Part shown: positions 13,965 through 26,673 of the stretch, piece by piece
How positions within the stretch are numbered: position 1 is the stretch's first letter
Layout of the letters: every line of letters begins with the position of its first letter
Assembly (NCBI GenBank): GCA_963716395.1
Contig: OY970309.1
Span: 896,001-960,000 of the forward strand
Reading direction: 5' to 3'
Origin: an uncultured Fibrobacteria bacterium
Lineage (GTDB): Bacteria; Fibrobacterota; Fibrobacteria; UBA11236
DNA length: 64,000 nt
Notes under the pieces: generated by a model
Database searches by the model: none
What the model was told of the DNA's origin: nothing
The model's input: the letters and a program-made list of their open reading frames with translations, nothing else
Position numbers and translations under genes: made by a program

Positions 13965-15812
13965 GGTATAACTCACGCGCCCACGCGGGGCGCGATTTAG
14001 CGCGTTCGCCTCTTCCCATGGTTTGCCAGGTTTCAACTCACGCGCCCACGCGGGGCGCGATCTTCCAATACCGCCTGATGTATAGGCATGAACAGTTTCA
14101 ACTCACGCGCCCACGCGGGGCGCGATTGCGCGAGTCAAACCCGACTGCAGCATTTTCCAGTTTCAACTCACGCGCCCACGCGGGGCGCGATCGTGAGCTT
14201 GCCGGATCGACTTGCATGCTTGGACAGTTTCAACCCACGCGCCCACGCGGGGCGCGATCGCAGCGTACGGATCGGCACCATCGCACGATGGTTTCAACCC
14301 ACGCGCCCACGCGGGGCGCGATTTCGTCGCGTCATCGATGGTCTGCTGTTTCAATCCACGCGCCCACGCGGGGCGCGATTGCAGTCGCACGTGCCAGCCG
14401 ATGAGGTTTCAATCCACGCGCCCACGCGGGGCGCGACTGCAGACTGGTATCGACATCGAGCGCCCTCATTAGTGTTTCAATCCACGCGCCCACGCGGGGC
14501 GCGATCTGCAATGCGTCGAGCATGCCAGACATCAGGTACGTTTCAACCCACGCGCCCACGCGGGGCGCGATGATAGCTCTTCTAGTACCGAGTCGCTCAC
14601 GATGCGTTTCAATCCACGCGCCCACGCGGGGCGCGATCGATCGCAGGCCGTTACCATCGCAATTGCGAGCAGCGTTTCAATCCACGCGCCCACGCGGGGC
14701 GCGATCATTAGCGAGCATCGAGCGCCAGTGGCGTAATGCTGCGTTTCAACCCACGCGCCCACGCGGGGCGCGATCAGTACCAGTAATCGCAGCCCGTAAG
14801 CGTCGAGAGTTTCAATCCACGCGCCCACGCGGGGCGCGATTGCGTTCAGCCGTATATCATTCGGATCGCTCGGTTTCAATCCACGCGCCCACGCGGGGCG
14901 CGATCACTGATATCGGATCCATAGCTCGTTGCGGTACATGGTTTCAATCCACGCGCCCACGCGGGGCGCGATCATGCCGTGAGCCATAATCGCGATCACG
15001 ATGCTAGTTTCAACCCACGCGCCCACGCGGGGCGCGATGATCGGCAGAGTTAGCATCGCGATATCTGATGGTTTCAATTCACGCGCCCACGCGGGGCGCG
15101 ATCATCACGCTGGTCGACAGTTGCACGACTATCGTCGTTTCAACCACGCGCCCACGCGGGGCGCGATCGATGCATTAGCGAGCTACCGTACAGTTTCAAC
15201 CCACGCGCCCACGCGGGGCGCGATTTCAATCCACGCGCCCACGCGGGGCGTTTCAATCACGCGCCCACGCGGGGCGCGATATCGCCAATGCCGGCAGTTC
15301 ATATGACAGTTTCAACCCACGCGCCCACGCGGGGCGCGATATGCATGCGGCATTGCCGCATAGTGCCATGCGTGCGATCACGCTACAGTTTCAACCCACG
15401 CGCCCACGCGGGGCGCGATCATATTCGCAACGCCTATACGATCTGCGAGCATGATGTTTCAACTCACGCGCCCACGCGGGGCGCGATGCTCAATTGAACG
15501 GCAAGCGATCGTACCTAGATGTTTCAATCCACGCGCCCACGCGGGGCGCGATATTCACGCCGATGATCCTATTGACCATCAATGGTTTCAACTCACGCGC
15601 CCACGCGGGGCGCGATACGCCCAATCGGCATCATTCCAAAGCTGCGTAGTTTCAACCCACGCGCCCACGCGGGGCGCGATATCAGCACGTTTGATCGAGT
15701 TCCGACATATTGCATGTTTCAACCCACGCGCCCACGCGGGGCGCGATCATCGACCGCGGCGGTCAATGCTTCAGCGCTGAGTTTCAATCCACGCGCCCAC
15801 GCGGGGCGCGAT
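13965..15812 (-). CRISPR. type I-C CRISPR array: 30 repeats (1 degenerate trailer, 1 partial, 2 with 1-nt deletions) and 27 spacers of 25-47 nt
   Basis: 32-nt repeat GTTTCAA(T/C)(C/T)CACGCGCCCACGCGGGGCGCGAT on +; degenerate copy at 13965; leader on the cas2 side implies minus-strand transcription. Confidence 0.97.
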
Positions 15813-15992
15813 AGCGATTGAATCTAACACCGATACAATAAGGTTACGAGAGAGATCAATCGCTAACCTCCCTCACAAGGTGATATAAACGGATACTACT
15901 CTTTTTAAACTTTCAAAAAGCGGGAATCCTGTTTGAGATCCGCATCGCTAACCTGCCCAGGGTCTCGATGGAACTGGGGGTTAGCGACTCAA
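15813..15992 (-). promoter_or_regulatory. CRISPR leader
   Basis: AT-richer non-coding 180 bp between the last repeat and cas2; TCGCTAACC at 15860 and 15945, inverted copy at 15979. Confidence 0.85.
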
Positions 15993-16283
15993 TTAAACCA
16001 TAATCAATTCCCCTAGATCGGGCGGTTTTTTGGCTCCATGATGCTCCACTTTTCGTTCCCAATTTGATCCAAGAAAGTAGAAGCGAAGGCTATCCTGATC
16101 CTGGTTTAAAATCCCCAAAAGCCTGGTTTTCAACACTTCCCAACGAGCCGGATCGAGATTGCATTCAAATACCGAATTTTGAACTCGAAGTCCGAAATCT
16201 TCACACGCTTCCGCGATTTTCCGAAGACGTTTCCGCCCTGCGGCCGTAATGGTGGAAACGTCATAGCTGACTAGCACCAGCAT
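15993..16283 (-). CDS. cas2: CRISPR-associated endonuclease Cas2
   Basis: [27 protein letters not shown]. Confidence 0.96.
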
Positions 16284-16284
16284 T

Positions 16285-17319
16285 TTATCTCCAAAGAAAG
16301 GCTGGATAGAATTCGAGATCTCCGCGAATGTGCCTAGCTAATAGCCGGGCTTGGGTCAGGAAACAGAGCCCAACATCCAAATCCTCGTCCAGGAAAGGAT
16401 GTTTGATGGTCTCGCGTTTTCTTTTTTGAATGTCGGCAAGAACCGTCTTGCGTGTTTCCACAGTCATTTCAACCTCGGTTGAAGGTTGCACGATGAACCC
16501 CTCGCGGTTGACTTGCTTGAGATTCACCAAACTCAACACCAATCGGTCTGCGAAAGGCGCCCGGAATTCTTCCATCAAGTCCAAAGCCAGCGATGGCCTC
16601 CCCGGCCGCTCCACATGAAGGTATCCGACATAGGGGTCAAGCCCCACCGATTCCAAAGCGGAGCGCATATCCAGGGCAAGAATGGAATACGCAAAGGAAA
16701 GCAAGGCGTTCACACGATCCGTCGGCGGCCTGCGACTTCGGCCGTTGAAGCGGAATTCAGATTCCGGCGGCAATAGCATCGCGTCGAATACCGAGAAGTA
16801 GGCTTCGGCGGCATCGCCTTCTATGCCGCGCAGCGACTCGACGGAATCGGTTTTCTTGGCCCCGGTAAGGCAATTCTCCATGCGGTTTAACATGACTTCG
16901 ATTTCCGCCGATCGGGTAGATTCCGGATGGTTGCGGAGAAAACGCAGCAAGGTGGCCCTTTGGTTCTGAATCTTGGCCGCCACGCAACAGCGGGCTATCG
17001 ACAACGAGCGCGCCGGATCGTCCGCGAGGCGATATTGTTCCCGTCGCAGTAAGACATTGCCATGTACCGGCCCCGTCAGTCGCGCCAGGAATTTTCCATT
17101 GCCATGCAAATAGCTGACGGTCACGCCTTCACGAGCGCAATGCTCGGACAGTTCCGGTGACACGCCGATGCCGAAACCGAAACAGACGATTTCACCGATC
17201 GCGTGAAGCGGGAATTGCGCAACTTTTTCCCTATCCTTGCGTACCGTAACCGCCTCGCCATCCTTGTGGAGATAAGCCCCTTCCAAGGTCATGTACAGCG
17301 TATTGCGAACATGCTTCAT
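16285..17319 (-). CDS. cas1: Cas1, type I-C
   Basis: [46 protein letters not shown]. Confidence 0.97.
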
Positions 17320-25555: not shown

Positions 25556-25633
25556 CCTTTACTTCGTCCGCTGTCAAGAATAGTCGGGACCGACGCGAGC
25601 AGCGCGCGCCGGTCGCTTCTGCGTCTAATTTTC

Positions 25634-25712
25634 GTCTCAGCGAATGAGACCGGCGTTACCTACTGCACAAATGAACCGTTGCATGGCTGCTTCCAGTTTC
25701 AGAAACTGAGAC
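25634..25712. promoter_or_regulatory. two palindromic putative WYL-regulator operators GTYTCA-N5-TGAGAC
   Basis: GTCTCAgcgaaTGAGAC 25634-25650 and GTTTCAgaaacTGAGAC 25696-25712 in the divergent cas3/WYL intergenic region. Confidence 0.6.
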
Positions 25713-25722
25713 GGAATATTCC

Positions 25723-26673
25723 ATGAAATCCATTTCTCACTTGCATAAGATCCATCGGTTGCTTTCGGAATCCCAAAAATCCGGGATCACCCTTCCCACC
25801 TTGCAACGTAAATCCGGACTTTCCCGGCCGACGGTGTACCGCGTCTTGAAGAAGTTGAAGGAATTGGGCGCCCCCTTAACTTCACCACGCCGGGGGTTTT
25901 ACGCGTTCGCCTCTGAAAGTGCCTTCGAACTCCCCGGCTTTGCCTGGCTTTCGGAGGGGGAACTCGGAACCTTGCTTGGCCTCATGGCCTGGCTTGGCCA
26001 GCCGGAATCCGAAGCCCTGGAAGAAATCATCGGCCCCTTCCGCAAACGCGTCGAGACCATGGCCTCCCGGCTGAAAATAGATGGGGAAAAGTTGCAGACC
26101 GCCATCGCTCTCTTGCCCATGCACGCCCGCGTCATTCGTCCCGGCATCCTGCGTCAGACTTGTGAAGGGCTTTTAAGCAACCGGAAATTGCGCATCCGTT
26201 ACGGCGATGAAGACGATTTCCTGGATCGCGAAGTTTCGCCTCAGAAACTTGTACGCTACCGCGATAACTGGTACCTGGATGCGTTTTGTCACGTGCGTCA
26301 GGCACTGCGAATTTTTTCTCTTTCCCGAATCCGGCGATTGGAATTGCTGGCGGAGCCGGCCGAATCGGTGCCCCGGGCGGAGCGTGACGCTTTTTTCGCC
26401 ACCTCCTACGGTATCTTCAGCGGTACGTCTCAACATACGGCCATCTTGCGGTTTACTGGTTACGCCGCCCAAGAGACAGAAGCTGAAACCTGGCACCCTC
26501 TGGAGCAAAAATCCCGCGATCAAGACGCTCTGGTGCTTCGATTTCCCTATGGAGATTCCCGCGAATTGGTACGGGATATTTTGCGCTGGGGCCCAGAGGT
26601 CGAGGTGCTTGGTCCCGTGAAATTAAGGGATCAGGTGGCGGAAATGGCGCGGCAAACGGCCTCGCAATATTAA
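25723..26673 (+). CDS. HTH-WYL-WCX transcriptional regulator
   Basis: N-terminal wHTH (LSRPTVYRVL), REVSPQKL..NWYLDAFC..RIFSLSRI, ILRWGPEVEVLGP. Confidence 0.92.
   Translation: MKSISHLHKIHRLLSESQKSGITLPTLQRKSGLSRPTVYRVLKKLKELGAPLTSPRRGFYAFASESAFELPGFAWLSEGELGTLLGLMAWLGQPESEALEEIIGPFRKRVETMASRLKIDGEKLQTAIALLPMHARVIRPGILRQTCEGLLSNRKLRIRYGDEDDFLDREVSPQKLVRYRDNWYLDAFCHVRQALRIFSLSRIRRLELLAEPAESVPRAERDAFFATSYGIFSGTSQHTAILRFTGYAAQETEAETWHPLEQKSRDQDALVLRFPYGDSRELVRDILRWGPEVEVLGPVKLRDQVAEMARQTASQY

Follow-up and report, generated by a model that had tools for sequence, protein, structure and literature searches.

Canonical type I-C (Csd/Dvulg) systems are encoded by seven core genes on one strand, in the order cas3-cas5c-cas8c-cas7-cas4-cas1-cas2. 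Type I-C has no cas6, and crRNA is processed by Cas5c. Known WYL regulators include BrxR, CapW, PafBC, Synechocystis Sll7009 and WYL1 of Cas13d. Fusions of WYL with Cas3 occur in some type I systems, according to Makarova et al. (2014, PMC4012209). Small cassettes of one or two genes can be nested in multi-gene immune operons, as is PrrC in type I RM loci, and this arrangement is exploited by the "guilt by embedding" approach (Payne et al., bioRxiv 10.1101/2024.01.29.577857), the main text of which does not contain the word "CRISPR". DdrC of Deinococcus radiodurans (PDB 7qvb, 7udi, 8u0g) is a radiation-induced repair factor. It forms dimers that bind nicks and double-strand ends (PMC11347143). 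The title of the DdrC paper calls the protein unique to Deinococcus.

Organization of the type I-C locus

We analyzed a window of 64 kb from an uncultured Fibrobacteria bacterium. An earlier note on this window had described three non-core modules embedded in a type I-C locus, and all of these parts were recovered at or near the places where it had put them. Core genes were called by Pfam and NCBIfam matches over curated cut-offs. Besides cas3, cas5, cas8c, cas7, cas4, cas1, cas2, a leader and an array of 30 repeats, the locus contains three extra modules. It is an ordinary, complete type I-C locus with a known kind of regulator alongside and two passenger cassettes wedged in.

All seven core genes lie on the minus strand in the canonical order. 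The cas3 gene (23261-25555; TIGR01596, 88.6 bits; TIGR01587, 109.5 bits; also Pfam) encodes both the HD nuclease and the SF2 helicase. The signature proteins of type I-C are all present, namely Cas5c (21694-22452; TIGR01876, 243 bits, cut-off 85), Cas8c/Csd1 (19988-21721; PF09709, 582 bits) and Cas7/Csd2 (18817-19965; TIGR02589, 370 bits, cut-off 182). Translation of cas5c starts at the TTG at 22452, behind an AAGGAGG Shine-Dalgarno sequence. The adaptation module follows with cas4 (17316-17984; PF01930, 70 bits), cas1 (16285-17319; PF01867, 339 bits) and cas2 (15993-16283; PF09827, 89 bits). The four cysteines and the RecB-type residues of Cas4 are invariant in our alignment (A2), and the ATG of cas1 at 17319 lies in a 4-nt overlap with the cas4 stop. 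As in canonical loci, the leader (15813-15992, minus strand, 45% G+C) and the array (13965-15812) adjoin the adaptation module downstream of cas2. The array, found by repeat search and TRF, is read in the minus direction and holds 30 copies of a 32-nt repeat, GTTTCAAYCCACGCGCCCACGCGGGGCGCGAT in its plus-strand form. Its units are irregular at 15193-15304. No Cas6 family match was found among the long ORFs of 15993-26673, each of which could be assigned.

The locus differs from canonical type I-C in two respects. The operon is broken by the two cassettes, and Cas7 carries an insertion of about 66 aa (residues ~100-165) that is absent from the other Cas7 proteins of the phylum. Its G+C content is 50-56%, compared to 60.5% for the whole 64-kb window, and type I-C was found in 6 of 61 relatives. 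We conclude from these two observations that the locus was acquired as an island. We favor, with somewhat more confidence than doubt, the reading that this is a functional-looking I-C island that carries a single regulator and, at insertion-tolerant junctions, two passenger cassettes acquired independently, which includes the roles proposed below.

The WYL regulator and the cas3 promoter region

Divergent from cas3 lies the gene for an HTH-WYL-WCX regulator (25723-26673, plus strand), with matches to PF08279, PF13280 and PF25583, all over cut-off. The protein matches the PADLOC models of cas-associated WYL proteins (E 1e-30), and it is a known kind of cas-associated regulator. It shares with these the order of the HTH, WYL and WCX domains, the position adjoining cas3 and palindromes in the shared promoter region. 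The protein also matches the N-terminal part (positions 113-316 of 1009) of the PADLOC Cas3c model, hence WYL-Cas3 fusions exist. Here, in contrast to these fusions, WYL is encoded by a separate gene.

The intergenic region between cas3 and the WYL gene contains two palindromes of the form GTCTCA-N5-TGAGAC. One, GTCTCAgcgaaTGAGAC (25634-25650), is located in the cas3 promoter region and is a candidate WYL operator; the other, GTTTCAgaaaCTGAGAC (25696-25712), precedes the WYL start codon by 11 nt. Two copies in the window are by themselves not above chance, since shuffled sequences contained 1.0 on average and 26 of 100 shuffles reached two. The exact motif was found in just one of 171 fetched loci (L131, genome G063), where it lies 21 nt after the WYL gene and upstream of cas3. 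The host of this locus belongs to another family and its WYL gene is 39% identical to that of the window. The two intergenic palindromes, together with the same motif beside WYL in G063, make a role as cas3 regulator plausible, as the earlier note had proposed. The protein probably binds both palindromes and would thereby control cas3 as well as its own gene. By analogy with other WYL regulators, its WYL domain may respond to a nucleic-acid-type ligand.

Using the window's protein as query, WYL genes were found at 5 of the 19 I-C loci of the phylum that have enough upstream sequence. These are 34-39% identical and their orientation differs; in genomes G013 and G014 the WYL gene lies on the same strand as cas3, whereas it is divergent in the window.

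A UPF0175/DUF3368 pair between cas3 and cas5

The first cassette consists of a UPF0175 antitoxin-like gene (22536-22787, plus strand; PF03683, 81 bits; PDLC05075) and a DUF3368 PIN-like toxin gene (22780-23271, plus strand; PF11848, 38.5 bits; PDLC05070, E 3e-46). The former starts with the ATG at 22536, and a longer ORF is possible from the TTG at 22500. Both families are adjacent on the same strand with an 8-nt overlap, which is the composition of the PADLOC candidate PDC-S70. A small antitoxin gene that overlaps the gene of a PIN-like toxin of about 160 aa is also typical of VapBC-like UPF0175/DUF3368 type II pairs. Compared to these, the pair of the window lies backwards inside a cas operon, and its subfamily has replaced the first catalytic Asp of the classical PIN domain by Asn (23 of 24 aligned sequences, the window included). 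In the same alignment E39, E77, D95 and D96 are invariant. RNase activity of the toxin is assumed. The pair faces cas5 head-to-head, the two start codons being 83 nt apart, and meets cas3 tail-to-tail, where the convergent genes overlap by 11 nt.

The pair is single-copy in its genome. Its closest match among 296 genomes of the phylum is 39% identical, the top identity among 184 database matches is 52%, and no match was obtained in the 31 genomes of the same family. None of 28 homologue loci has cas genes within 1.5 kb, and none of the 25 other I-C loci of the phylum carries the pair. We conclude that it is a one-off, sporadic insertion, seen in no other genome of the samples searched. As evidence against its model, the earlier note had named sporadic insertion of this pair and of the Bro-N gene between cas7 and cas4. 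This holds for the toxin-antitoxin pair and fails for the Bro-N gene, which recurs in place and is inherited with the adaptation genes (see below). The pair may thus be described as a lineage-specific type II toxin-antitoxin cassette that would have been inserted backwards between cas3 and cas5. Its role would most likely be that of a selfish stabilizer or a stand-alone abortive-infection candidate and not that of a working part of Cascade.

A DdrC-like protein encoded between cas7 and cas4

The second cassette is a single gene (17981-18820, minus strand) for a protein of 279 aa with a Bro-N domain (PF02498, residues 17-108; 49.7 bits, gathering cut-off 25.6). It overlaps both cas7 and cas4 by 4 nt, as cas4 does with cas1, and is therefore a streamlined part of the operon. 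The protein matches the PDC-S13 model PDLC04920 over its full length (E 1.1e-111, residues 7-272 on profile positions 5-273 of 286).

An AlphaFold model of the protein (pLDDT 93.1) was used for structure searches. With Foldseek the six best matches were all DdrC (E 7e-7 to 4e-5, probability 1.00), followed by a seventh match at E 0.046. VIA-align aligned 210 of 214 residues with DdrC at Z 12.4 and an rmsd of 11.6 A, while the next unrelated match reached 7.4. A different relative orientation of the domains in the two proteins accounts for the low TM-scores (0.36-0.51). DdrC is thus the top match in two independent structure searches, yet sequence identity is just 11-14%. Both proteins have an N-terminal winged-helix/Bro-N-like domain and a helical C-terminal domain. 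A search of the PDB with the family profile retrieved the C-terminal domain of DdrC only, with a weak E of 0.037, and aligned K170 and D174 of DdrC with K195 and D201, respectively. There is also weak similarity to the C-terminal domain of E. coli DinD. These models suggest a two-domain, DdrC-like and distantly DinD-like protein, which probably dimerizes and binds ends or nicks in DNA. Many sources label members of the family "DNA-damage-inducible protein D". For the protein of the window, assignment as a DinD equivalog was ruled out, as it scores 21.3 bits against a cut-off of 242 (NF008573).

Distribution and inheritance of the Bro-N family

The Bro-N gene occupies the cas7/cas4 junction in 5 of the 26 I-C loci of the phylum. 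Among the 30 best family members of the phylum, 16 are embedded in cas loci (I-C, divergent I-C and I-E) and 14 lie outside. Fifteen of the 16 embedded copies are located directly upstream of the first adaptation gene, which is cas4 in I-C and cas1 in I-E; type I-E has no cas4. The sixteenth copy (L181) is flanked by a cas4 fragment on one side and cas4 on the other. Outside this phylum survey, we found two loci with the order cas4/gene/cas1 and one with Cas12a/gene/cas4; the latter is among the 7 cas-embedded loci of the 80 best in genome contigs. A probable broken-DNA-binding protein recurs just before the adaptation genes in many CRISPR systems. A link of this family with cas adaptation genes was not found in the literature searched.

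The gene travels with its neighbors. Genomes G020 and G031 share with the window 80% identity in cas4, 77% in cas1 and 83% and 78% in the Bro-N gene, but merely 27-44% in cas7, and the corresponding clade is well supported (UFBoot 100, aLRT 98). Sequence comparison thus indicates that the gene and cas4-cas1-cas2 move together as one block, which is combined with different effector modules. In the tree, I-E-linked and I-C-linked copies fall into supported clades of their own. Matches are few in phage (4 of 50,697 records) and plasmid sequences (15 of 72,556 records), and we conclude that this is a host gene and not a phage gene. The family also occurs in restriction operons, and some members lie among housekeeping genes, as in the order IMPDH/gene/GuaA or within a CoA-transferase A/B pair. 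Its persistence requires no immune partner. Identity within the family is 64-84% across bacterial and archaeal phyla.

For the Bro-N gene, the reading that we favor proposes co-transcription and translational coupling with cas7 and cas4 and inheritance with the cas4-cas1-cas2 block. Its product would be a self-sufficient helper of immune systems that cut DNA, which may comprise CRISPR types I and V, restriction types I and III, Eco57I-like methylase-containing type II systems and McrBC. It might bind the breaks that these systems introduce into invader DNA, so that repair or escape is hindered or fragments are held. Such a role would explain both the embedding in many operons of this kind and the extreme sequence conservation.

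The positions upstream of adaptation genes would also suit a dedicated spacer-acquisition accessory. Such a protein would bind fragment ends or nicks, in Cas3 degradation products or broken invader DNA, and pass the fragments on to Cas4-Cas1-Cas2 or retain them for these proteins, so that naive or primed adaptation would rise. The co-inheritance with cas4-cas1-cas2 despite different effector modules, the 4-nt overlaps in the window and the separate I-E and I-C clades fit this idea as well. We nevertheless regard it as unlikely, since members of the family also occur within restriction operons and as solitary genes among housekeeping genes, one copy (L022) lies upstream of cas3, 21 of the 26 I-C loci of the phylum do without the gene, and the same junction accepts unrelated cassettes. 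In the boldest form of this idea, which we likewise consider unlikely, the gene would be an undescribed accessory of the adaptation modules of I-C, I-E and V-A. Its product would capture broken invader DNA or Cas3 products by their ends or nicks for Cas4-Cas1-Cas2 and so link interference to memory formation, and the neighboring WYL protein may respond to the same DNA-damage signal.

Passenger genes at operon junctions

At the cas7/cas4 junction, 6-7 of the 26 I-C loci of the phylum house unrelated passengers (ParE, two HicAB pairs, YhcG, PDDEXK_3, a Y1 transposase-like gene and one unknown). Position alone may therefore merely mark a permissive site. In total, 12-13 of the 26 loci contain at least one embedded gene, representing at least nine kinds at four junctions, and within one adaptation-module lineage the same place is held by the Bro-N gene, a ParE pair or YhcG. 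This abundance and turnover could mean that all three extras, or at least the toxin-antitoxin pair and the Bro-N gene, merely hitch-hike and have no immune role, with the junctions of mobile defense islands serving as safe, transcribed landing sites where small cassettes accumulate and turn over. The transposase-like passenger and the family members between housekeeping genes would agree with that. We judge this quite improbable for several reasons. The 64-84% identity across phyla points to strong selection on function. Cas loci occupy well under 1% of a genome, yet they contain 16 of the 30 best phylum copies, far more than random landing would place there. Furthermore, the gene is intact and translationally coupled, and neither a recombinase nor terminal repeats were seen with it at this locus.

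The earlier note had combined the extras into one integrated, regulated I-C variant, in which a nucleic-acid-sensing WYL protein switches cas3, a PIN toxin wired to Cascade provides addiction or abortive infection and Bro-N is a further component; although each of the three extras is embedded in, or adjoins, the same operon, the 83 nt between the starts of the toxin-antitoxin pair and cas5 could in principle let autoregulation of the pair touch the cas5 promoter, and a WYL/Bro-N gene pair lies without cas genes on a short contig of a same-genus genome, we consider this very improbable, because the three modules never occur together at the 25 other I-C loci of the phylum, the pair is confined to this genome among the samples searched and the WYL genes of relatives are so divergent and differently oriented. 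Calling the locus the best candidate for an undescribed system was likewise overstated, as both passengers are already catalogued in PADLOC as candidates of Payne et al. (PDC-S13 and PDC-S70). These are predictions, and section 10 of that preprint reports no PDC test.

The toxin-antitoxin pair and the WYL gene are ordinary. A DdrC-like protein that aids immune nucleases or spacer capture would, if true, represent a widespread, highly conserved putative factor of both CRISPR and restriction systems. DdrC would then belong to a family that is spread across bacteria and archaea and found within immune operons. CRISPR type I operons gather embedded cassettes at module junctions, like BREX and restriction operons. 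In contrast to the published embedding survey, the host operon here is CRISPR-Cas and one passenger is linked to adaptation genes in a position-specific manner. Our survey thus broadens the reach of "guilt by embedding" and cautions annotators that an embedded gene is not always part of the system. AIPR is a further passenger seen at the same junctions in relatives.

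A complete type I-C locus with three additional modules

The minus strand of the window carries a complete type I-C CRISPR-Cas locus. The CRISPR array (13965-15812, minus strand) comprises 30 copies of a 32-nt repeat; in order of coordinates an AT-richer leader of 180 nt comes after it. The core genes come next in the order cas2, cas1, cas4, cas7, cas8c, cas5 and cas3, all of them well over the curated Pfam/NCBIfam cut-offs. Three gene starts were refined, that of cas1 to ATG 17319, that of cas5 to TTG 22452, which is preceded by AAGGAGG, and that of the antitoxin gene (see below). 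The three extra modules that the earlier note had placed in this locus were confirmed in position. A gene of 279 aa with a Bro-N domain (17981-18820, minus strand) lies between cas7 and cas4. From cas7 through the Bro-N gene and cas4 to cas1, each gene shares 4 nt with the next. A toxin-antitoxin (TA) pair of UPF0175 and DUF3368 genes lies between cas3 and cas5 on the strand opposite to the cas operon, and an HTH-WYL-WCX gene (25723-26673, plus strand) is divergent from cas3. G+C content is 50-56% across the island, compared to 60.5% in the window. Since passengers and cas genes do not differ in G+C composition, composition provides no dating of the insertions. A search with Cas8c found type I-C in only six of 61 related genomes, a count that includes the genome of the window. 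A promoter/terminator scan was uninformative (2 promoter-like sites versus 6.8 expected).

The array is irregular at 14291-14461 and 15193-15304, where short spacers are implied by periods of 57-58 nt. Three copies of the repeat follow one another at distances of 30 and 26 nt and lack intervening spacers, suggesting local decay or recombination. Comparison of the array with phage records by blastn revealed no protospacers and a single repeat-like match, located in an unannotated 5.6-kb record. Cas7 (18817-19965) contains an insertion of about 66 aa at residues ~100-165. The insertion is missing from the other I-C Cas7 matches of the phylum, whose alignments split at ~100 and ~165, but three other lineages have it in their I-C loci (L013, L022, L037). 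Convergent with the WYL gene we observed an ORF of 356 aa (26903-27973, minus strand), which may be part of the same accessory island. It had no Pfam or PADLOC match and was not found among 11 genomes of the same genus; its Atlas look-alikes are unnamed clusters, one of them auto-named DnaJ-family.

Small cassettes occupy the junctions of I-C operons

I-C-type Cas7 was detected in 27 of the 296 phylum genomes, yielding 26 readable loci, that of the window among them; the junction survey excludes G008 and G141, whose contigs break off within cas7. Fourteen loci join cas7 directly to cas4. The Bro-N gene occupies this junction in five loci (the window, G014, G053, G148 and G292), and other inserts were found in six, namely a ParE pair (G055), two HicAB pairs (G295, G070), a YhcG nuclease (G127), a PDDEXK_3 gene (G063) and a Y1-transposase-like gene (G108). 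One further locus (G128) carries a 125-aa ORF without family assignment. Three further junctions are occupied, in 3/25 loci for cas3/cas5 (the TA pair of the window, AIPR in two loci), in 2/26 for cas5/cas8c (YhcG) and in 3/26 for cas4/cas1 (DUF559 and two inserts of unassigned family). The G148 locus (L121, G148:C396) has the order cas3-AIPR-cas5-YhcG-cas8c-cas7-BroN-cas4-cas1-cas2; this operon holds three embedded genes, as in the window, but a different set.

These data support the general view that CRISPR type I operons gather small cassettes where one functional module meets the next. The proposal that WYL regulator, toxin and Bro-N gene build one regulated I-C variant is rejected by the data, as all 25 other I-C loci that were examined lack the TA pair. 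Among the embedded cassettes it is the Bro-N gene that stands out, by its frequency, by a fixed place, shared by three CRISPR types, ahead of the adaptation genes, by its co-inheritance with these genes and by its extreme conservation.

The Bro-N protein belongs to a large family and its model resembles DdrC

The Bro-N protein is a full-length match to the PADLOC candidate PDC-S13 (E 1e-111), and its full-length match in PHROG is phrog_15286, to which no function is assigned. More than 8000 family matches were obtained, those listed being 73-84% identical and distributed over many phyla. Species-representative genomes contained 559 further relatives, CPR bacteria and DPANN archaea among them, and the best 80 of these are 64-80% identical. 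Clustering at 50% identity left 656 representatives at E 1e-30 or better. The family is very large and unusually conserved. It is rare in mobile records, with matches in 4 of 50,697 phage and 15 of 72,556 plasmid records. An identity as anti-CRISPR or phage antirepressor was rejected in view of the four phage records, and the PHROG antirepressor matches (E 1e-6 to 1e-7) are confined to the Bro-N domain, which likewise argues against an antirepressor.

A structural model was predicted with a pLDDT of 93.1 from an alignment of 49 sequences. The top match in both structure searches was DdrC of D. radiodurans, spanning both domains. Foldseek recovered six DdrC chains at E 7e-7 to 4e-5, with the next match at 0.046, and VIA-align gave DdrC a Z of 12.4 with 210 of 214 residues aligned, compared to 7.4 for the next unrelated match. 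TM-scores were low (0.36-0.51) and the rmsd was high because the domain orientations differ. At sequence level the profile weakly reaches the C-terminal domain of DdrC (E 0.037), and in this weak alignment K170 of DdrC aligns with a Lys of the window protein. The model for E. coli DinD was matched far below cut-off. DdrC is described as a dimer that traps two lesions and has nicks as well as double-strand ends as its binding sites (PMC11347143). We refer to the gene as DdrC-like.

DdrC-like genes are found in CRISPR loci, restriction operons and elsewhere

At E 1e-30 the protein is matched in 52 of the 296 phylum genomes. Genomic context was surveyed for the window and its 29 best matches, which rank ahead of about 44 weaker ones. 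Sixteen of these 30 copies are cas-embedded, one adjoins a WYL gene, two reside in restriction operons (between HsdR and HsdS and between McrB and McrC) and 11 are located elsewhere or unresolved. Five of the 16 cas-embedded copies belong to I-C loci and five to a divergent I-C-like variant, whose Cas7 is 27-51% identical in the aligned pieces and whose representative L011 has a Csd1-type Cas8. Four copies sit in I-E loci between cas6e and cas1 (L187-L190, from G073, G126, G122 and G290), one between a cas4 fragment and cas4, and one between cas5 and cas1.

Among the best 80 loci across phyla, a set that is biased towards the query, seven copies are cas-embedded: three at cas7/cas4, two at cas4/cas1 and one upstream of cas3. 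The seventh separates Cas12a from cas4 in a type V-A locus on a Methanosarcinales contig (L085). About 11 of the 80 adjoin restriction or helicase genes, and the majority of the remainder are solitary among housekeeping genes. Three rows of this set, taken from Fibrobacterota contigs, have the same protein sequence as rows of the phylum survey that belong to the family or genus of the window (L011/L175, L015/L176, L017/L177), and count once.

The copy wedged between McrB and McrC was observed in L201 (G284), and in L025 the gene separates Mod from Res in a type III restriction system. In L177 (the same locus as L017; G001, same genus) a WYL gene 38% identical to that of the window is found directly upstream of a DdrC-like gene of 77% identity, on a 5-kb contig without cas genes. 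These two genes may be a damage-responsive regulator/effector pair.

The DdrC-like gene travels with the adaptation genes

In G020 and G031, cas4 and cas1 are 80% and 77% identical to those of the window and the DdrC-like gene is 83% and 78% identical, respectively, whereas Cas7 of both genomes is just 27-44% identical. Conversely, the nearest relative of the insertion-bearing Cas7 of the window (66 aa inserted) is encoded in a locus from another phylum (71%). This opposite kinship assigns the DdrC-like gene to the adaptation block, and this block has been swapped from one effector module to another.

A maximum-likelihood tree of 80 rows places the window in one group with two copies from outside cas loci and five further cas7/cas4 copies (UFBoot 100, aLRT 98; the bootstrap had not fully settled). 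The cas label requires 3 changes on this tree compared to 6.9 for shuffled labels, and one of 500 shuffles was as low. The copies linked to I-E make up a separate clade (98) in a FastTree phylogeny of 105 rows. Both trees point to a cas association that is inherited within subclades and arose several times.

We rank first a reading in which the DdrC-like protein would provide a self-sufficient DNA-directed activity, useful to any DNA-cutting immune system. This is argued for by the copies in restriction operons and between housekeeping genes. A protein dedicated to spacer capture ranks second: the place ahead of the adaptation genes would suit it, the copies outside CRISPR loci would not. A mere hitch-hiker ranks third.

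The I-C system is of a known kind, as are the WYL regulator and the TA family, and both passengers (PDC-S13 and PDC-S70) are already catalogued in PADLOC, as candidates. In the literature searched, supplementary tables being outside the search, no paper was found that links the DdrC-like family to the effector/adaptation junction, nor any on Bro-N with type I-C CRISPR, PDC-S13, DinD with CRISPR cas4, or DdrC with Bro-N. The main texts of the Shmakov et al. preprint (10.1101/270033) and of the FLSHclust paper (PMC10910872) do not mention Bro-N, and the former does not mention DinD.

The toxin-antitoxin pair is a one-off insertion

The antitoxin gene (22536-22787, plus strand) most likely starts at ATG 22536 and is followed by the gene of the PIN-like toxin (22780-23271, plus strand). 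The pair matches PDC-S70 (toxin E 3e-46) and is single-copy in its genome. The closest toxin match is 39% identical in the 296 phylum genomes, and the closest match among 5.8 billion clustered proteins is 52% identical. None of 31 same-family genomes gave a match at E 1e-10, and none of the 28 loci with a match had cas genes within 1.5 kb. The TA pair is a one-off insertion. The toxin retains the invariant family residues E39, E77, D95 and D96. Its first PIN position is Asn; inactivation by a window-specific Asn-for-Asp change was rejected, since 22 of 23 aligned homologues share this residue and Asn is the family norm. As the start codons of the TA pair and cas5 are 83 nt apart, the promoters could conceivably influence each other, though no observation speaks for this. 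Reading by eye gave a possible TTGTGC-17-TATTAT ahead of the antitoxin gene, which is below the scan threshold.

The WYL regulator and its putative operator

The WYL protein matches PADLOC models of cas-associated WYL proteins (E 1e-30) and also the N-terminal part of a Cas3c model, in agreement with the WYL-Cas3 fusions described for some type I systems (Makarova et al., 2014; PMC4012209). Of the phylum I-C loci, 19 had at least about 1.3 kb upstream of cas3, and searching with the window's protein detected a WYL gene at 5 of these. We conclude that the regulator is of a known kind. Two 17-nt palindromes, GTCTCAgcgaaTGAGAC and GTTTCAgaaaCTGAGAC, lie in the 167 nt that separate cas3 from the WYL gene, the latter 11 nt ahead of the WYL start codon. 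From their sequence we propose them as a candidate WYL operator, although the number of palindromes in the window is by itself not above chance. The exact motif was found in just one of 171 fetched loci, L131 (G063, another family), where it lies upstream of cas3 and 21 nt behind a WYL gene 39% identical to the window's. Between the WYL-side palindrome and cas3, L131 also carries a small ORF of ~95 aa (2675-2962).
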